64,000 nt of DNA from Nannocystis pusilla (GCF_020073745.1 NZ_JAIRAU010000047.1:285990-349989); one strand, 5' to 3'; counted from the stretch's first letter, positions 36,157-59,187 are shown. Translations and numbers: made by a program. Notes: generated by a model from the sequence alone, not told the origin.

Positions 36157-37788
36157 TCAACTTCGCAGCACGCGCAGCGCTCGCTCGAGGTCCGACATCA
36201 CCGTGTCGTCGGCCGGATTTCGCTGCCCCGGAGGGAGTTCACCCTCGCGTCGGATCACGTACGACGGATGATACGTGACGTGAAGTGGGATCTGCAGGCC
36301 TGCACCCGGGTCGTCGTAGGTCCAACGACGGTTGCGCATCTGTGCCAACTTCAGATCCTGATCGGTGCCGGTCAGCAACATCCCCGCGTGCCGGCCGAGC
36401 GCCACGATCACCGCGGGACGGATCGCCCGGATCTGGGCGCGCAGGAACGGCGAGCACTTCTCGATCTCGTCGGCGGCCGGTTCGCGGTTGCCGGGCGGCC
36501 GGCACTTCAGCACGTTGGCGATGTAGACCTGCTCGCGCTTCATGCCCAGGCGCTCGATCCACTGCGTCAGCCGCCGGCCGGCAGCGCCGACGAACGGCTC
36601 GCCGCGCCGATCTTCGTCCGCGCCGGGCGCCTCGCCGATGAACATCACCCGCGCGTCGGGGTCGCCGACGCCGAATACAATGTTCGTGCGGGTCTTCGAG
36701 AGCTTGCAGCGGGTGCAGTCGCCGACGTTACGGGCCCGCAAGTACTCGAGCTTCTGCGCCGGCGTCCACGCCTGAGCCTGCGCGCGTAGCGAGGCATCGC
36801 CGGCCGGGCGCGGCGCGCCCTCGGCCGCACGCGGCGGTGCCCCCTGATCCGCCAGCGGCAGGCTGACCGTCCGGGGCCGCGGCGACGGCTCCGCGGGCTG
36901 CTGGTGGACCGTGCGAGCGCGCGGCGGCTCCGCGGGCGCGCGCGAACGCGGTGCATCTTGCGGCGGCGGCTCCCAGTCTGCAGGGCCCCGCTGCGTGCGC
37001 CCTCGCGTCGTCTCCTGCGGCGACGACTCGCGGTCTGCATGGCCCCGCTGCGCGCGCCCTCGCGTCGTCTCCTGCGACGACGCCTCCCGGTCTGCAGGGC
37101 CCGGCTGCGCGCGCCCTCGCGTCGGCTCGTGCGGCGACGGCTCCCGGTGTGCAGGGCCGGGCTGCGCGCGCCCGCGTGTCGTCTCCTGCTGCGACGACTC
37201 CCAGTCTCCGGAGCCCGACTGCGCGCGCCCGCGTGTCGTCTCCTGCGGCGGCCACGGCTCCCAGTCTCCGGGGTCCGGCTGCGCGCGCTCTCGCGTCGTC
37301 TCCTGCGGCGACGGCTCCCAGTCATCCGGGCCCGGCTGCGCTCGACCGCGTGGCGTCTCTTGCGGCAGCGACGGCTCCCAGTCCTCGGGGCCCGGCTGCG
37401 CGCGCCCTCGCGTCGTCTCCTGCGACGGCTCCCAGTCCGCCGGGCCCGGCTGCGCGCGCCCTCGCTTCGTCTCCTGCGGCGGCGGCCCCGAGGCCGCGCC
37501 CGGCTGTGTGCGCGCTCGCGGCTCGGGATCGCGGGCGGATCTGGCCTGGTCTTCGGGCCATGTCGGCGCGCGCGCCCCCGCGGCGGTGCGCTCGGTCGCC
37601 TGTCCGGACGGCCAGGTGCTGTCCGGCGCCGGCGATCGCTCCTCGGGCGCGGAGATCGGCGCGCTCGCGCGACGCGGAGAGGCCGCGGCGGACACGTACG
37701 CCAGACCGCGGAACTCCCGGAGGTGACGCAGGTGGGCGGCGAACTGAACCGCCAGCCGCCGGGTCGCGTCGCGTCGATCGCCTTCCAC
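36157..37788 (-). CDS. family-4 uracil-DNA glycosylase with N-terminal tandem-repeat extension
   Basis: The C-terminal 200 aa carry UDG-4 motifs: '[20 protein letters not shown]', '[13 protein letters not shown]', 'HPSYVIR', and a 4Fe-4S Cys cluster 'CTRCKL'. The N-terminal 330 aa form an in-frame Pro/Arg-rich repeat tract. The start codon is uncertain. Confidence 0.65.
36960..37500. repeat. about 9 tandem copies of a roughly 57-60 bp repeat (19-20 aa unit '[19 protein letters not shown]') inside the UDG N-terminal extension
   Basis: Direct reading: 'ggctcccagtc[tc]...gggcccggctgcgcgcgccctcgcgtcgtctcctgcg' recurs head-to-tail. The peptide repeat is visible in the ORF translation. Confidence 0.8.
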
Positions 37789-48085: not shown

Positions 48086-49003
48086 TCACTGCTTCTTCTT
48101 ACTGGGGGGCTTCTTGGAGGACCTGCTCGCCGCGTTGCCGGCGGGCGACTTGCCGGCGGACGACCTGGCCGCCGGCTTGCCCGCGGCGGGCTTGCCCGTC
48201 GGCTTGGCCGCCGATCTCCCGGCCGGCTTGCCCGATCTGGCGGGCGTCGGGTCGGGCTCCGGCTCGAACCCGGGATCGAAATCGTCGACGCCAGGAATAG
48301 GGCCGGCGAACTCCAGGTTGTCGGCCCCGATGTCGTCGTCGCCCTCGCCCACGCCGGAGTCGGCGAGCTGCTTCAGGGCCGCTTGCCACGAGCTCGCGGG
48401 CCTGGCCGGCTCCTCGAGGTCGGCGTCGGCGGCGATCGGCACCTGGGCGTCGACCGCCCCGCACGCCGCGCACGGCCCCGGCGGCTGACCGTTCAGCTCG
48501 GCGCCGCAGCGCATGCACAGGCCGCGGCACGCCTCCCCGTACGCGCACAGCGCCCGGATCGGATACGACAGCAGCACCTGCTCGGTGATCAGCGGCCGCA
48601 GGTCGATGCGCGTGCCGGAGAAGCTGCGCTCGTCGGGCGACTCGGTCTCGGTCTCCTCGTCGTCGGCGTCGCCGACGCGATCGCGGACGAAGTGCACACA
48701 AATCTCGCCGCCGGCGGAGACCGCGGCCGGGGCCAGGCAACGGGCGCAGGGGACGCTGTAACCGCCCTGGATCGAGCCGCGGACCAGGTAGCTGCTCCCC
48801 TCGCCGATCGGCGTGACCTCGAGCTTGGTGGAACCGGCGCTCGTGACCTCCGCGTCGGTGTGCGCCAGCACCGTCGCCATCCACGGCGCCGGAAGCTCCG
48901 CCTGGATGTCGTACGGACCCGGCCCCGAGCGGGCCAGGGCCACGAGATCGAGGTCAAGCTCCGGCGGGAGCTGCGTGCCGTCGTCGCGGGTCGTGGCCTT
49001 CAT
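48086..49003 (-). CDS. yceD: YceD/DUF177 family protein with Lys/Ala/Pro-rich C-terminal tail
   Basis: About 305 aa from ATG 49003 (MKATTRDDG...). Paired CxxC motifs ('CARC...', 'CMRCG...CAACG') are typical of DUF177. It sits in the conserved position upstream of rpmF. Confidence 0.65.
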
Positions 49004-49250
49004 CCGGCCGCATGTAGCGCGTGGCGCCAGGGCTGTCAAACCGCCGCCAGCCCGGATCCATTCCCCGCCAGCCCCGGATCCTTGTGGATCCTTCTGTTGA
49101 CACGGCAAACGTGGATTGGCTATTGCCTCCCGGCCCTTGGTCGCCTCTGAGCCCACTGCGCGCCTCGGAGGCGCCGACGCGAGTCCCGAGCTCGACGCGC
49201 CCGGCGACGTCCGGGTCGACGCGCCGGCGCGTCCGCTCGACGACATCATG

Positions 49251-49313
49251 ATGCGCACGCCCGACGACCTCATGCGCACGCGCGACGACCTCATGCGCAC
49301 GCGGGTCGTCGCG
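49251..49313 (+). repeat. three tandem 21-bp repeats each starting with ATG (ATGCGCACGCSCGACGACCTC), at the 5' end of the giant gene
   Basis: Direct reading: 'atgcgcacgcccgacgacctc atgcgcacgcgcgacgacctc atgcgcacgcgggtcgtc'. A 15-bp duplication 'gcctgcctgatcggc/gcctgtctgatcgga' follows. Confidence 0.85.
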
Positions 49314-52300
49314 GTCTCGGCCTGCCTGATCGGCGCCTGTCTGATCGGACTTGTCCCTCGGGACAGCCACGCCGCGCGCCCGGTCCGGCAGCTCGGCATG
49401 GTCGCCTCGACCGGCGCGCCGACCTGGCCGGCCCTGCACGCCGCGCCCGGGCTGCGCCCCACCGACCTGGTCGCCGGCCTCGGCGCGCCGCTGCTGCTCG
49501 CCCCGCCGCGCACCACCCCGCGGCGCCTGCCCGGCGGCCAGGCCGAGCCGCCCGCCGGCGAGCCGCCCGCCGGCGAGCCGCCCGCGAGCGAGGCGACGCC
49601 GGTCGAGCCTGTCCCCGAGGACATGCCCGATCAGCCAGGGCCTTCGGCACCTGGCCCCACGGGCAGCCCGTTGACGCGGCCGACCCCGAACCTCGCGCCG
49701 CCGCCGAGCGGCGACGATCTCGAGGCCGGCGACGAGGAGGTCGCGCCGGCGCCGGAGCCGACCAACGACAACGCCCCGCCAGTGACGGTGCTGGTGCCCG
49801 AGCCGGAGAAGCCCGACCCGGCCGACGAGGTCCCGCGCTTCCTCAAGGGCAAGAGCGTCCCGCCGTTCTGGATCGACCGCACCTACACGACGCACCGCAC
49901 GCGCGCGCTGACGCTGCCGCCGCTGTTCTTCGACCGCCGCGGCACCGCGACCCACCCGGAGAAGCTGTTCCACTTCAACCTGTCCTTGACGACAGGTTGG
50001 TACAGCCAGCGCACGGCCAAGCGGCGGTGGTTGTCGCCGGCGATCCTGTTCTTCGGCTCGTTCAGCGAGCGCACCAGCGGCTGGGGCGCGGTCGCGCTGC
50101 TGATGGGCTACAAGCGGGTCGGCGAGCAGTTCAGCTTCGGCCAGTTCCCGTTCGTGTGGCGGTGGGGCAACAAGTCGGTCAAGAACCTGATCGTCGTCCC
50201 CTTCCACTACCACCAGAAGACGCCCGACAGCATGCGCGGCTTCTCGGCGCTGCTGTTCTGGTACGGCCACAAGAACACCACCGACAAGGATCCGCTCAAC
50301 GACCTGCGCTACTTCGTCGGCGCGCCGCTGTTCTACCGCGTGACCCGCGGCCCGAGCACCGTCAACGTCGGCGTCCCGCTCTACGTGGGCGGGCAGAACA
50401 AGGCCCGCGGGGTCAAGTGGCACACGGTGCTGCCGTTCGTGCACTGGCAGTCGAGCGAGTACGGCAACCGCAAGGACCTGTGGACGCTGCTGTACGTGCA
50501 GCGCAGCGACAAGGCCCGCAGCCAGCGCACCTGGGCGGTCCCGCCGCTCCTCACGTTCTCGCGCCAGACCCCGACGCGCAAGCTGTTCTCGGCCACGCCG
50601 CTGGTGTGGCGCGCCGAGAACCGCGACCGCGGCAGCGTCGCCTGGTCGGCGTTCCCGTGGGTCAGCTACCGCGACCCGGAGCAGCGCAACCGGGTGCTGT
50701 TCCCGCTGTTCTGGCAGTTCGGCGACGTCAAGGCCGGCGTCACCAGCAGCGTGTTCGTCCCGCTGCTGTACGCGCGCAAGAGCCCGCAGGACACGCGGGT
50801 CTACACCCTGCTCGGAGGCGGTCGCGCCGGCAAGGACGGCCGCTGGGGCTTCGGCATCACCCCGCTGCTGACGTTCGTGCGCAACGAGCCCGGCGGCAAC
50901 AGCTTCCAGGTCGTCACGCCGCTGTTCGGCCACTCGCACGACCCGAGCGCCTACGACGGCAAGGGCTCGCGCACGCTGTCGGCCGGCGTGCTCGGCTTCT
51001 ACCGCCGCCGCGGCGAGCGCTGGGACGCCGGCCTCGCCCCGCTCGCGTTCGTCGGCCGCGACGGCACCCGCTCGTACCAGACCATCACCCCGCTGTTCTG
51101 GCACCGCCGCGACACCGACCCGGCCAAGCCGAGCGACCTGTGGGTGCTCGGCCCGATCTACGCCAAGAAGGTCAAGTCCGGCGGCCACGGCGGCCTCGCC
51201 CCGCTGGTGTTCGCCGGGCGCGACGACAAGTTCCGCTACGGCATCGTCCCGCCCTTGCTCTTCGGACATGTCCACGACGTCGAGGCCCAGCGCGCGCTGA
51301 CGGTGTCGCCGCTGTTCGCCCGCAGCAAGGGCCCCGACCACCGCACGATCGGGGTGCTCAACCTGTTCTGGGACGTGAAGCGCGCCGGCGACGAGCGCCA
51401 CACCGCGCTGTTCCCCCTCTTCTACCGGCGGCAGAAGGACGGCAAGGCGCTCACCCTGACCCCGCTGGGCGGCGCCTATCGCACGCCGGAGCAGCGGACC
51501 TGGTCGGCCGCGGCGCTCCTGTACGGCTTCCGCGGCTACAAGGATCCGGTCCGCCGCGGCTTCGGCCTGATCCCGCTGGTGTTCTACGACCGGCGCAAGG
51601 TCGAGGGCGGCGTCGCCAGCAACCTCGTCGTCGCGCCGCTGTTCGCCCGCCACCGCGCGCCGAGCGAGGACCTCGACATGTGGTCGCCGCTGGTCTGGCG
51701 CACCGCCACGCGCGGCGAGAAGCCGCGCAAGAACCTCGCGGTCGTCCCGTTCTACTTCCGCCAGCGCCAGCCCGAGGGCATCGACGTCGACGCCGGCCTG
51801 CTGCTGCCGTTCTTCTACAGCCGCGACAAGATCCGGCGCACGCACACGCTCATCGCCGGCCCGGCGTTCCACCGCCTCACCCGCACCTCGCTCCACGCCG
51901 GCGTGGTCCCGGTCTACTGGTGGATGGACTCGGCCGAGAAGCGGCGCCTGATCTCGCTGCCGCTCATCTTCCACCAGGCCGACAAGGCGAAGAACGAGCA
52001 CACCACCATCGCCGTGCCGTTCTGGTTCGACCGTCAGCGGGCCAACGGTCGCCGCTCGTGGGTCGCGTTCCCGTTCGTCGTCGGCGTCAAGGGTCAGTTC
52101 AACTTCACGCGCTTCAGCCTGGCCCCGCCGATCTACTTCGACTTCTTCCGCCTGCACAAGAACTACCGCTTCACCGGCGTGGTCCCGTTCGCGTTCCGCT
52201 ACCAGAAGTGCGGCTTCCGCGAGGAGGACGACGATCGTTGCCGCTACACGGTGTGGGGCTCGTGGCCGTTCTTCCTCTACGGCAAGGACGGCAAGGGCCG

Positions 52301-53243
52301 CACCAGCCACGGCGCGCTGATGCTCTACTACTTCGACAAGGACCCGGGCGGCCGCCGGTTCCTCACCTTGCTGGGCGGCGCCAACGTGCGGCCCGGCGAG
52401 CGCCTCACCTGGTACGCGCTCAACTTCGGCCACACGACCACGCGGCAGTTCAAGACCACCGTCTTCTTCCCGCTGTTCTTCCGCAAGGCCTACCGCACCA
52501 AGGATCGCAGCACCACCGTCGTGCTGCCGCCGCTGTTCGTCGGCGCCCGTCGCGAGGACTACCGGTGGTTCCAGGCCGGGCTGATGGTCTGGAACTTCCG
52601 CCGGCCGCACAAGGTGACCACCGTGGTCGCGCCGCCGCTCTTCTACACCGCGCACAGCTACGCCGAGCGGCGCATGACCTGGCTCTTGCCGCTGTTCCTG
52701 CGCGACAACAACTGGGCCAAGGACACCAGCTTCACCAGCGTCTTCCCGGCCCTGGTGTTCCAGCGCCGCCGCGGCCAGGACAACGACTGGGTCCAGTTCC
52801 CGCTGATCTGGCACATCGAGCGCGGCGAGAACTCGGGCACCTTCGGCGCCTTCTTGTGGTGGGACATCCGCCGCAAGGGCCGCGTCACGCAGGTCGTGCC
52901 GGCCATCTGGGCCCGCCAGCGCGGGCGCGGCCGCGAGACCCAGGTCATCGGCCCCGGCCTCGGCTGGTGGTGGCGCACCGAGCAGACGATCAGCGACGCC
53001 AAGGGCGACGGCATCGGCGTCAAGAAGGGCCTCCACTGGCGCGCCCTGTTCGGTCTCATCGGCGGCGGCAACGACGGCGCGCAGCGCTACTTCTCGCTGT
53101 TCGGCGGCCGGATCCCCCTGCGGCCCAAGGCCGTGTGGGAGCCGCGACGCAAGCGCCTCAAGGCCCAGACCCCCGCGGCGCCCAAGGCCCTGCCCCCGGC
53201 CGCGCCGAAGGCCCCGGTCGAGCCCGCGCAGCCCAAGCCCTGA
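49293..53243 (+). CDS. giant (about 1316 aa) aromatic-rich tandem-repeat lipoprotein of unknown function
   Basis: Signal/lipobox 'MRTRVVAVSAC' (duplicated 'ACLIG'). A Pro/Glu-rich linker is followed by about 1100 aa of degenerate 25-40 aa repeats, each beginning 'PLF/PLL...' and rich in W/F/Y/R. The frame also opens at ATG 49116, 49251 and 49272. Confidence 0.6.
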   Translation: MRTRVVAVSACLIGACLIGLVPRDSHAARPVRQLGMVASTGAPTWPALHAAPGLRPTDLVAGLGAPLLLAPPRTTPRRLPGGQAEPPAGEPPAGEPPASEATPVEPVPEDMPDQPGPSAPGPTGSPLTRPTPNLAPPPSGDDLEAGDEEVAPAPEPTNDNAPPVTVLVPEPEKPDPADEVPRFLKGKSVPPFWIDRTYTTHRTRALTLPPLFFDRRGTATHPEKLFHFNLSLTTGWYSQRTAKRRWLSPAILFFGSFSERTSGWGAVALLMGYKRVGEQFSFGQFPFVWRWGNKSVKNLIVVPFHYHQKTPDSMRGFSALLFWYGHKNTTDKDPLNDLRYFVGAPLFYRVTRGPSTVNVGVPLYVGGQNKARGVKWHTVLPFVHWQSSEYGNRKDLWTLLYVQRSDKARSQRTWAVPPLLTFSRQTPTRKLFSATPLVWRAENRDRGSVAWSAFPWVSYRDPEQRNRVLFPLFWQFGDVKAGVTSSVFVPLLYARKSPQDTRVYTLLGGGRAGKDGRWGFGITPLLTFVRNEPGGNSFQVVTPLFGHSHDPSAYDGKGSRTLSAGVLGFYRRRGERWDAGLAPLAFVGRDGTRSYQTITPLFWHRRDTDPAKPSDLWVLGPIYAKKVKSGGHGGLAPLVFAGRDDKFRYGIVPPLLFGHVHDVEAQRALTVSPLFARSKGPDHRTIGVLNLFWDVKRAGDERHTALFPLFYRRQKDGKALTLTPLGGAYRTPEQRTWSAAALLYGFRGYKDPVRRGFGLIPLVFYDRRKVEGGVASNLVVAPLFARHRAPSEDLDMWSPLVWRTATRGEKPRKNLAVVPFYFRQRQPEGIDVDAGLLLPFFYSRDKIRRTHTLIAGPAFHRLTRTSLHAGVVPVYWWMDSAEKRRLISLPLIFHQADKAKNEHTTIAVPFWFDRQRANGRRSWVAFPFVVGVKGQFNFTRFSLAPPIYFDFFRLHKNYRFTGVVPFAFRYQKCGFREEDDDRCRYTVWGSWPFFLYGKDGKGRTSHGALMLYYFDKDPGGRRFLTLLGGANVRPGERLTWYALNFGHTTTRQFKTTVFFPLFFRKAYRTKDRSTTVVLPPLFVGARREDYRWFQAGLMVWNFRRPHKVTTVVAPPLFYTAHSYAERRMTWLLPLFLRDNNWAKDTSFTSVFPALVFQRRRGQDNDWVQFPLIWHIERGENSGTFGAFLWWDIRRKGRVTQVVPAIWARQRGRGRETQVIGPGLGWWWRTEQTISDAKGDGIGVKKGLHWRALFGLIGGGNDGAQRYFSLFGGRIPLRPKAVWEPRRKRLKAQTPAAPKALPPAAPKAPVEPAQPKP

Positions 53244-53405
53244 TCGGCGGCAGTTGTCCTCCTTGCGAATGCAAGGACGATGACGACGCACGGATGACGC
53301 CGATGGGCGCGATGCGGTGCACCCGCGTCGCGCCCACACATCATGCTTGCCTGCGGCCACGAGGGCCCCGGGCGCGGACCCGGAGCCCACGTCGCGCCGT
53401 GGTGA

Positions 53406-55142
<1,737 letters not shown>

Positions 55143-55340
55143 GGTCCTCGGGTCTAAGATTCGCGGGCCGCCCACGCACGCATGGGCGAACCAGCGGAGT
55201 CGACGTAGCGTTTCGGATCGCGAGCGATCGATCAAGCGTGCAAGTCCGCGACGCGCGTCGTCGTGCCAACGAATTTCACCCGCGAAAACACCGACGCGGG
55301 CCGCCCCGGCCGGAGCGACCCGCGCGTCATGCCACATCAC

Positions 55341-57086
55341 TCACATCGGCTGGATGCCGCAATCGTCGACCTCGTTCGGAATGCAACCCTCGCAATCCCA
55401 CCGGAAGTTGTCGAGCAGCGCGACCGTGGTCAGGTATTGATCGGACATGTCGGCCAAGAAGAAGCCGATCGTGATCTCGGCACCCGGCTGCACACCGCCC
55501 TTGGCGGTGAACCAGTCGGTGCAGGCGTGCTGCTCGAAGCCCGTGCCCTGCAGCTGCGGCTCGGCGAAGGTGTAGCCGGGGCCGTCGTAGTACGGGTCGA
55601 GCGCCGTGATCGTCAGCGGCAGGCCGCTGGCCGGATTGTTCGGGTCGGGGATGAAGGTGACGTTGCCGCTGTACGGGTCGACCGGGGGCATCGCGTTCGG
55701 GTTGTCGGGCGTCGGATCGACCTGATAGGCGATCAGCAGGTCGTTGTACGAAGAACCGACCCACGTCGGCCACTCCGCCGAGCAGAACACGAAGTCGAAG
55801 GTGTAGCCGAACGTGCCCGCCGGCACCTTCGTATTGAAGGTGAAGTAGATGCGGTCGTTGGCGTTGCCGTTGGTCATCGCCCACTGGGCCTGGAGCGTGT
55901 CCGAGCAGTCGCGGTCGCCGTTCGGCACGCCGTTGTCGCAGTTCTTGAAGGGCGTGCCGCCGGCGCCGTTGTTGCTGCCGTTCTGGTTGTTGAACGGCGC
56001 CGGCAGGACGCCGCCGTCGGGGTTGAAGTTGTCGTCGTGCGTCTGCGAATTCGCCGGCTCGACGACGACGCCCTGGCCGTTCGGCGGGGTGATCGTGCCC
56101 GTCGACAGCATCAGGAAGGCCGCGCCCTCGCGCGGGCTGTAGAGCAGCTGCGGCGGCGTATTCGCGTCCATGTCGTGGTCGTAGGTGTACGTGCCGAAGC
56201 CCTTCGCCACCTGCCACGAATTGTCGACCGCCTGCGAGAACTGGAAGTTGCTCGTCATGATCGAGTCGGCCGGGGTGCTGTTGCAGATGCCGATCGCCTT
56301 GAGCGCGTTGTTCTTGTCGGCCTTGTTGCTGATCACGTCGGGCGCGTCGTCGCACACGACATAGTTGGCCGGGGCCTGACAGCTGGCCGGGAAGTAGGTG
56401 GTGCAATTGTTGAGGCAGAAGTCGCCGGGGCCGCCGTCGACCGTGTTGCCGTCGTCGCACTCCTCGCCGGCCTCCTTGATGCCGTTGCCGCAATCGGCCG
56501 GCGAGAACGTGCAGTCGGGCTCGCAGCCGTCGCCGGGGACCACGTTGCCGTCGTCACACTGCTCGGGGCGCTCGACCGTGCCGTTGCCGCAGTCCTGCAG
56601 CGGCGTGGCCGTCTGGCAGTCGGCGCTGCACTCGTCGCCGTCCTCGGTGTTGCCGTCGTCACACGCCTCGCCGGCCTCGACGTTGTTGTTGCCGCAAACG
56701 GCCGTGATCGTGCACGTCGGCTCACAGCCGTCGCCCGCGACGTCGTTGCCGTCGTCGCACTCCTCGCTGCCCTCCTGAACGCCGTTCCCGCAGTCCGGCA
56801 CGCCCTCCGTCACGCCCTCCGTCTCGGCCGCCGTGGCCGTCCCCTCCGTCGTGCCCTGCGTGGCGCTGTCGCTCACGCCCGTGGTCGGCGTGCCCGTCGT
56901 CGGCTGCGAGGTCTCGGTCGCCGAGTCGCCGCCCGCGGTCGCGTCGACCGTGGCTTGTGAGGCGGTGTCGCCCTCGGTCTGACCGTCGGACGCGCTCGAA
57001 AGTTTGCCGCCGTCGTCGCCGCACGCGGCGAGCGCCGAGGCGAGAAAGCCGGCCGTAAGGATTCGAAAAGTCGGTCGAGTCATCAT
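55341..57086 (-). CDS. myxobacterial Cys-rich repeat lipoprotein, paralog 2
   Basis: About 581 aa from ATG 57086 (MMTRPTFRILTAGFLASALAACG). Same architecture as paralog 1. Confidence 0.7.
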   Translation of the reverse strand: MMTRPTFRILTAGFLASALAACGDDGGKLSSASDGQTEGDTASQATVDATAGGDSATETSQPTTGTPTTGVSDSATQGTTEGTATAAETEGVTEGVPDCGNGVQEGSEECDDGNDVAGDGCEPTCTITAVCGNNNVEAGEACDDGNTEDGDECSADCQTATPLQDCGNGTVERPEQCDDGNVVPGDGCEPDCTFSPADCGNGIKEAGEECDDGNTVDGGPGDFCLNNCTTYFPASCQAPANYVVCDDAPDVISNKADKNNALKAIGICNSTPADSIMTSNFQFSQAVDNSWQVAKGFGTYTYDHDMDANTPPQLLYSPREGAAFLMLSTGTITPPNGQGVVVEPANSQTHDDNFNPDGGVLPAPFNNQNGSNNGAGGTPFKNCDNGVPNGDRDCSDTLQAQWAMTNGNANDRIYFTFNTKVPAGTFGYTFDFVFCSAEWPTWVGSSYNDLLIAYQVDPTPDNPNAMPPVDPYSGNVTFIPDPNNPASGLPLTITALDPYYDGPGYTFAEPQLQGTGFEQHACTDWFTAKGGVQPGAEITIGFFLADMSDQYLTTVALLDNFRWDCEGCIPNEVDDCGIQPM

Positions 57087-57453
57087 GGTCGTGTCCTGTA
57101 TGCGAAGCATGTGGGCCGTCCTCGAATGCATGGCGGTCCCGCCTTGATTCCTCATGATTCATGAGTGATCAAGGCCGGTGCCTCGCGCAGCGGTCCGCAG
57201 GCCTCATTGGTGAATCTGCAGCCTCGACCGCGCGAGACCGTCGTTCCGGCGCAGGAAGCACGCGATTCGTCGTCGCTGCCGATGGTGATCCACCGCAAGC
57301 TGTCGAGCTCGCTGGAAGACCACGGGTAGACGTCACATTTGTTCGACTCGCGCGATTCGACGCAACATCACACCATCGATTCCGCCCGCTCGAGACGCGA
57401 CGAGGCGCGCACGTCGCCGTGCGCGCCGCGTCACTCGTACCTCGAGCCGTCGA

Positions 57454-59187
<1,734 letters not shown>

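Follow-up and report, generated by a model that had tools for sequence, protein, structure and literature searches.

Repeated ATG codons at the 5' end of a long Nannocystis gene probably lie within a length-variable signal peptide spacer, downstream of a conserved TTG start codon

The window analyzed here, a 64,000-nucleotide stretch of DNA from Nannocystis pusilla (GCF_020073745.1 NZ_JAIRAU010000047.1:285990-349989; positions are counted from its first letter), contains a long open reading frame that is divergent from yceD-rpmF-plsX-fabD and whose 5' end is occupied by short tandem repeats. The reading frame ends at 53243 and encodes 1331 amino acids if read from an ATG at 49248, but 1368 if read from a TTG at 49137. 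An initial annotation had drawn attention to a 21-bp triplication and a 15-bp duplication at 49248-49345, and had proposed that changes in their copy number alter the start, the signal peptide or the lipobox of a surface protein, and with these its export or expression. We find that the repeats are real, but that translation most likely starts at TTG 49137, upstream of all of the repeated ATG codons, and that the repeats are probably recent in-frame duplications within a long Sec-type signal peptide (Table 1).

All of the repeat strings quoted in the initial annotation are present in the sequence, and Tandem Repeats Finder (TRF), which we used together with a gap-free repeat search and with shuffles to set the level expected by chance, reports both the 21-bp and the 15-bp repeats. 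The 21-bp unit occurs 2.5 times at 49251-49303 (96% matches, score 99), and the gap-free search adds a diverged copy that begins at 49229, at a spacing of 24 nt. If up to three mismatches are allowed, the unit has two matches in the window compared to 0.02 expected from shuffles, all of them at this array; a search for the unit as a dispersed element found no further copy in the 64-kb window. The stretch encodes RPLDDIM-M-RTPDDLM-RTRDDLM-RTR, and thus has four in-frame ATG codons (49248, 49251, 49272 and 49293) rather than the three counted initially. The nest of repeats is also wider than had been noted, since a 24-bp array that had not been listed extends it, with the 21-bp repeats, over ~49190-49303. 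The 15-bp duplication reads GCCTGCCTGATCGGC / GCCTGTCTGATCGG[A] and encodes ACLIG-ACLIG. The lengths of all three units (21, 24 and 15 nt) are multiples of 3, and the units are present in 1.9-3.1 copies with 84-96% matches by TRF. A perfect 10-bp inverted repeat (49281-49290 / 49304-49313) has ATG 49293 in its loop. A GTCCC-TC-GGGAC palindrome, also remarked upon initially, is indeed found at 49353-49364, just outside the 49248-49345 stretch, but palindromes of the same form (5-nt arms, 2-nt loop) number 174 in the window, or one per 367 nt, which is the chance level. Window-wide, there are ~35 short tandem arrays in 64 kb (∼1 per 2 kb), with periods mostly divisible by 3. The repeats at this gene look like ordinary slippage-type duplication within coding DNA that is weakly constrained and low in complexity, in a genome of 72% G+C.

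The position of the start codon is indicated by comparison with orthologues. We tabulated 19 distinct N-termini, drawn from an alignment of seven genomes, 11 loci found by a metagenome pattern scan and two contig look-ups; orthologous loci are labeled L001-L025, of which L001 is the N. radixulma comparison locus and L009 is that of N. pusilla Na p29. The 5' alignment of the seven genomes is near-invariant from a TTGACA hexamer via TTG 49137 to ~49187, then diverges, and is conserved again at the hydrophobic core of the signal peptide. All 22 orthologous loci with the conserved block keep the TTGACA, and in all 19 N-termini it is followed, after 40 nt (39 in one lineage), by TTG in the core clade or GTG in all others. 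The codons from this start onward read M-[V/D]-A-[S/F]-E-P-x-x-R, a motif that is also recognisable in the more distant clade and that may extend to -(LGG). The distance from the start codon to the hydrophobic core varies from 19 to 78 codons in 11 distinct lengths, with the frame kept in every one of the 19; we estimate that the frame would be kept by chance, if this DNA were untranslated, with a probability of about (1/3)^10, taking the length classes as independent. Between this codon and the hydrophobic core, eight of the 19 N-termini have no other in-frame ATG, GTG or TTG; of all 19, only that of the window has ATG codons there. The NCBI annotation of the orthologue in Nannocystis sp. RBIL2 starts at the equivalent codon (P0001 'MVASEPTARLGG'). 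The G+C content by codon position of 49137-49247 is 86/57/86%, which is coding-like, compared to 70/73/57% for intergenic DNA. Thus, the conserved position, the maintenance of frame across many lengths, the RBIL2 annotation and the coding-like composition together make TTG 49137, 111 nt upstream of the first ATG, the most likely start, with the Met codons of the repeat internal to the coding sequence. The repeated ATGs, initially taken as a candidate start, would then be strain-specific by-products of duplication. Two peptides, VASEPTAR and LGGADASPELDAPGDVR, would mark the long precursor.

The sequence that follows has the layout of a Sec signal peptide, as judged by inspection and hydropathy (MRTR / VVAVSACLIGACLIGLV / PRDSHA↓A, in which the arrow marks the predicted cleavage), and this layout is common to all orthologues. 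The spacer sequences cannot be aligned across lineages, although the rest of the protein is 87-97% identical in the core clade, and homologous hydrophobic cores are found in all orthologues. Cleavage sites in the orthologues take the form DSHA↓A, DSQA↓R, DSLA, VASA↓S or ALA↓A, and the predicted mature N-terminus of the window's protein, after Ala79 (49371-49373), is ARPVRQLG.... As to the lipobox that the initial annotation placed here, VSAC and IGAC fit loose patterns of [LVI][ASTVI][GAS]C, but the first Cys is Gly in RBIL2 and N. pusilla, and in L006, L007 and L012 the sole Cys directly follows Arg, leaving no lipobox-type Cys, while Ala-x-Ala-type sites are present. Since the Ala-x-Ala-type site is conserved across the family and the Cys and lipobox-like strings are not, we infer that processing by signal peptidase I after Ala79 is the better reading.

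To place the repeats in time, we turn to the relatives. A genome scan found orthologues in N. radixulma (97% protein identity), N. pusilla, RBIL2, N. exedens, N. bainbridge, N. punicea and several metagenome bins; N. radixulma was the only genome at 97% protein identity, and matches in the protein database are all at ≤87% identity. In the aligned flanks on both sides (∼7 kb), the window has 97.4-97.9% DNA identity to N. radixulma NCELM, and thus derives from a strain very closely related to it. Against this background, the window carries a 63-nt in-frame insertion at the repeats, at ~49219-49281, although its exact placement is ambiguous because of the repeats themselves. In N. radixulma the DAPGDV unit is single, as is a diverged 21-bp unit (…AVIHTR) that lacks an ATG, whereas the window has two and three, respectively. 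DAPGDV, the 24-bp unit, is single in other species as well, and the 21-bp expansion is absent from all 18 other distinct N-termini; because more distant species also lack the repeats, the expansion is derived in the window's lineage. Apart from one codon just past the PAGEP repeat, the remaining length difference between the two genes is 18 nt (6 amino acids) in a C-terminal 24-bp repeat.

The 15-bp duplication behaves differently. It is present in two copies in all nine of the closest genomes examined, and the two copies are mutually diverged in N. radixulma, N. pusilla, RBIL2, N. exedens, N. bainbridge, N. punicea and the 78%-identical L013; two already diverged copies across these genomes indicate a duplication that is old and stable in copy number. 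Thus, the lability suggested initially for both repeats is seen in the 21-bp array, with three units compared to one diverged unit in N. radixulma, but not in the 15-bp repeat, for which invariant copy number had been named beforehand as the result that would speak against variation. Other orthologues have unrelated arrays of their own within the gene's first 300 nt: 21 bp ×2.2 in L019, within its 78-residue n-region, 9 bp ×3.3 in both L008 and L015, 21 bp ×2.5 in L023 and 21 bp ×2.0 in L021. A scan of metagenomes with a core-clade 33-mer gave 0 matches, the 11 loci recovered with a degenerate promoter pattern all belong to the more distant clade, and neither scan turned up a further strain with the 21-bp unit.

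We consider it probable that the 21-bp and 24-bp repeats are recent in-frame duplications in a weakly constrained spacer of an unusually long Sec-type signal peptide that is translated from TTG 49137, a few nt downstream of the promoter-like block. Replication slippage or unequal exchange, the accepted mechanism for coding tandem repeats (PMC3899988), would have generated the duplications within the translated spacer, between the conserved N-terminal peptide and the basic patch and hydrophobic core. The n-region would thereby have been lengthened from ~35 residues, as in N. radixulma, to 56 in this strain, and the ATG-bearing unit copied three times as a side effect. Cleavage at SHA↓A probably removes the signal peptide, and the mature protein would then be unaltered by copy number, which would at most modulate the efficiency of targeting and may be nearly neutral. 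Because all units are multiples of three, no ON/OFF switch is expected, and high-frequency switching is not expected either, because instability depends on copy number and purity (PMC3899988) and here there are 2-3 imperfect copies. The phase-variable export or expression proposed initially is not supported, and the term surface protein was an assumption about a protein whose body matches no family, but the proposal that the n-region changes length without a frameshift is borne out by the 63-nt difference from N. radixulma.

Table 1. Coordinates of the features at the 5' end of the gene in the 64-kb window
Feature	Position	Strand	Basis or remark
TTGACA, conserved; putative -35 element	49097..49102	+	Position and conservation only
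Coding sequence, revised; 1368 residues, TTG start, stop 53241-53243	49137..53243	+	Orthologue comparison
Conserved N-terminal peptide MVASEPTARLGGADASP	49137..49187	+	Nearly invariant in seven core Nannocystis genomes
Hypervariable n-region spacer (residues 18-56), ending in basic patch MRTR	49188..49304	+	Spacers do not align
24-bp tandem repeat ×2.4 (LDAPGDVR / VDAPARP)	49190..49242	+	TRF, 84% matches
21-bp tandem repeat	49229..49303	+	Diverged copy, then near-perfect copies at 49251-49303
Hydrophobic core VVAVSACLIGACLIGLV (residues 57-73)	49305..49355	+	Kyte-Doolittle maximum 2.5 over 15 residues
15-bp duplication ×1.9 (ACLIG ×2), within hydrophobic core	49320..49348	+	TRF, 92%
c-region PRDSHA, predicted signal peptidase I cleavage after Ala79 (SHA↓A)	49356..49373	+	Small residues at -3 and -1

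Several observations weigh against this interpretation. No candidate start, TTG 49137 included, has a Shine-Dalgarno match, and all are weaker than the window median; Shine-Dalgarno strength, which was tried as a means of picking among the starts, is thus uninformative. ATG 49293 would yield a textbook signal peptide (MRTR, the hydrophobic core and SHA↓A), and internal initiation may occur at this codon in this strain; the placement of the start rests on sequence comparison. The n-region is net acidic, with 8 Lys and Arg compared to 12 Asp and Glu, which is unusual for a Sec signal peptide. A consensus scan found no complete sigma-70 promoter and no acceptable -10 hexamer, and for this reason TTGACA is only a putative part of the gene's promoter. 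Over the first 13 codons, which are conserved, non-synonymous substitutions show no clear deficit relative to synonymous ones, and the constraint on these codons could be partly at the nucleotide level. Finally, in the repeat copy that has been kept, 11 of 35 positions are not the same as in N. radixulma (49282-49316 versus L001 2993-3027), compared to ~2% in the flanks; simple slippage does not account for this copy. The cluster of 11 substitutions adjoins the insertion, and in the window this stretch makes the perfect 10-bp inverted repeat; the cluster could have arisen by templated correction at a quasi-palindrome or through a small patch of recombination.

If one or more of the repeated ATGs were instead the real start, slippage in the 21-bp and 15-bp repeats could vary n-region length, start choice or the lipobox, and so alter export or expression heritably and reversibly. 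We think this unlikely. ATG is a stronger start codon than TTG, the signal peptide read from ATG 49293 is canonical, this codon lies in the loop of the inverted repeat, and the window and N. radixulma do have different copy numbers. However, no orthologue has an ATG here, and eight of the 19 N-termini lack any alternative in-frame start. No ATG has a Shine-Dalgarno match, an ON/OFF switch is impossible with units that are multiples of 3, and the 2.5-3 copies are imperfect in a setting in which copy number and purity mainly set instability (PMC3899988). The 15-bp copy number is invariant in the nine closest genomes, and the Cys is unconserved in the wider family. A variant in which both starts are used, with a long precursor made from the conserved TTG and carrying the conserved peptide, a short one made from ATG 49293, and copy number shifting their ratio, is one to which we give little credence; if true, tandem duplication would have created a new start that skips an N-terminal peptide, specific to this family, with a role in targeting or regulation.

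The conserved block at 49097-49187 might also go untranslated and function as DNA or RNA, in a promoter or leader, with starts that are lineage-specific and lie downstream, here at the repeated ATGs. The block is near-invariant in nucleotide sequence in seven species, is predicted to form a 9-bp hairpin (GCCTCTGAG/CTCGGAGGC), and shows amino acid changes not clearly rarer than silent ones. This is quite improbable in our view, since the frame is kept across all 11 n-region length classes and the first codon is TTG or GTG in every case. The 3' arm of the hairpin is replaced without compensation in the L006/L007/L008 clade, and there is no Rfam match. The low rate of silent change is not particular to the block, since synonymous differences are few along the whole gene (in 18% of invariant-residue columns) and 16 invariant codons are unexceptional. 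Two more specific versions were tried and rejected: a riboswitch or 5' leader RNA built on the same hairpin, which without an Rfam match has a fold z-score of -1.7 and a 3' arm unconserved in distant orthologues, and nucleotide-level over-conservation of the first 16 codons, which, given the low synonymous variation of the gene as a whole, is not significant (P ∼0.04 or weaker). That the extra copies are an artefact of a mis-assembled short repeat is very improbable: the frameshift in N. pusilla Na p29, which may be a sequencing error, would indicate that such assemblies contain errors, but the array of ~75 nt is far below any read length, its copies carry distinguishing point changes, and the reading frame is intact.

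Recent duplication in a translated spacer, the interpretation that we favor, has partial parallels in known systems. The repeats resemble bacterial in-frame variable-number tandem repeats (VNTRs) in having head-to-tail units of >10 nt divisible by 3 within a low-complexity, weakly constrained segment; the copies exceed chance, and the copy number of the 21-bp and 24-bp units differs between close relatives with the frame kept, although the 15-bp duplication, at two copies in the nine closest genomes, shows no such difference. Unlike VNTRs in mature surface-exposed domains, this array is in the n-region ahead of the cleavage site and would not alter the mature protein. The repeats do not have the short unit (1-9 nt) in a long pure tract that marks a contingency locus, nor could they switch expression by frameshift or by promoter spacing, as they are in frame and downstream of the inferred start. 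In the opa genes of Neisseria, CTCTT repeats lie in the region coding for the leader peptide (PMC3960869, PMC3899988), and this 5-nt unit, in many copies, shifts the frame and switches expression at ~1e-3 per generation (PMC3960869). The repeats described here similarly lie in the part of the gene that codes for the signal peptide, but have 21-, 24- and 15-nt units in 2-3 imperfect copies that are always in frame. The N-terminal layout is also loosely reminiscent of the extended signal peptide region (ESPR) of autotransporters and two-partner-secretion proteins (N1-H1-N2-H2-C; PMC2805444), in which, as here, a conserved N-terminal extension precedes a basic patch, hydrophobic core and cleavage region on a very large beta-rich protein that is secreted or, in the present case, predicted to be so. 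Unlike the ESPR, the extension here is acidic, has no hydrophobic H1, connects through a spacer whose length varies greatly, and occurs in a family apparently confined to the Nannocystaceae. Searches of Pfam with the N-terminal 269 residues and with the whole protein found no ESPR, type V or other family at E≤1, and a literature search for in-frame repeats in signal peptide n-regions found no close precedent.

For annotation, these results imply that the start of the gene should be moved to TTG 49137, and that the Met-rich repeat should be taken neither for a start nor for a device for phase variation. The family, whose members are ~1200-1480 residues in length and whose spacer tolerates large changes in length, could be used to study long n-regions. 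More generally, short in-frame duplications often give rise to length variation in this genome of 72% G+C.

The body of the protein is less easily assigned. Sequence searches of Pfam, NCBIfam and the PDB found no match, and there are 94 full-length relatives, of which all those with a taxon name fall in the Nannocystaceae or in bins of unclassified Myxococcota or Deltaproteobacteria (Nannocystis, Enhygromyxa, Paraliomyxa and metagenome bins), such that the family appears to be confined to the Nannocystaceae. An AlphaFold2 model of residues 230-1368 has a mean pLDDT of 79.5 and a pTM of 0.32, with ~110 short beta-strands, and a motif, h-h-P-[LPF]-[FLY]-[FWY], recurs at spacings mostly of 16-20 residues. 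The model suggests that 49824-53240 encodes a repeat body of ~1100 residues made of short beta-hairpins. Foldseek found local likeness only, to teneurin YD shells, the ApoB100 beta-belt and OspA (TM-scores ≤0.10); the likeness in fold to MORN repeats is likewise local, and no sequence profile of MORN or of OspA-like single-layer beta-hairpin repeats was matched. The C-terminal 24-bp repeat of the gene (PAAPKAL...) lies at 53153-53214. The orthologue in N. pusilla Na p29 (L009) loses its frame at about codon 500, and is either a pseudogene or the result of a sequencing error.

The region between the gene and yceD has features of its own. TTG 49137 is only ~11 nt past the expected position of a -10 element, and a very short leader is likely for this reason, as the lack of a Shine-Dalgarno match also suggests. 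A sigma-54 promoter was considered, since TGG-N8-TTGC fits 49112-49126, but was rejected because both halves lack conservation in the L006/L007/L012 clade. Directly upstream of TTGACA, at 49044-49096 (L009 2783-2848), is a 22-bp tandem repeat, CCCGGATCCTTTCGCCGCCAGC, with GGATCC palindromes. It is present in two copies in most Nannocystis and three in N. pusilla, and in the window and N. radixulma a further 10-bp GGATCCTT(G/C)T unit accompanies the two copies; these repeats are candidate operator sites whose number differs between species. On the minus strand, at 49001-49039, the divergent yceD reads TTGACA-N17-TACATG-N7-ATG, and its mRNA is possibly leaderless, because the start codon lies approximately where transcription should begin.

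Repeats are also found elsewhere in the window. Directly downstream of the gene, 53260-57972 comprises paralogous segments of up to ~2 kb that are 83-94% identical to one N. radixulma segment, and these contain 105-bp repeats (×3.2-3.3) at 54504-54826 and 56445-56775. A minus-strand open reading frame in this region, at 55341-57155, matches DUF4215, and another at 53341-54852 has no Pfam match. The largest tandem array of the window, a 57-bp unit repeated 9.2 times with 83% matches, lies at 36959-37486.

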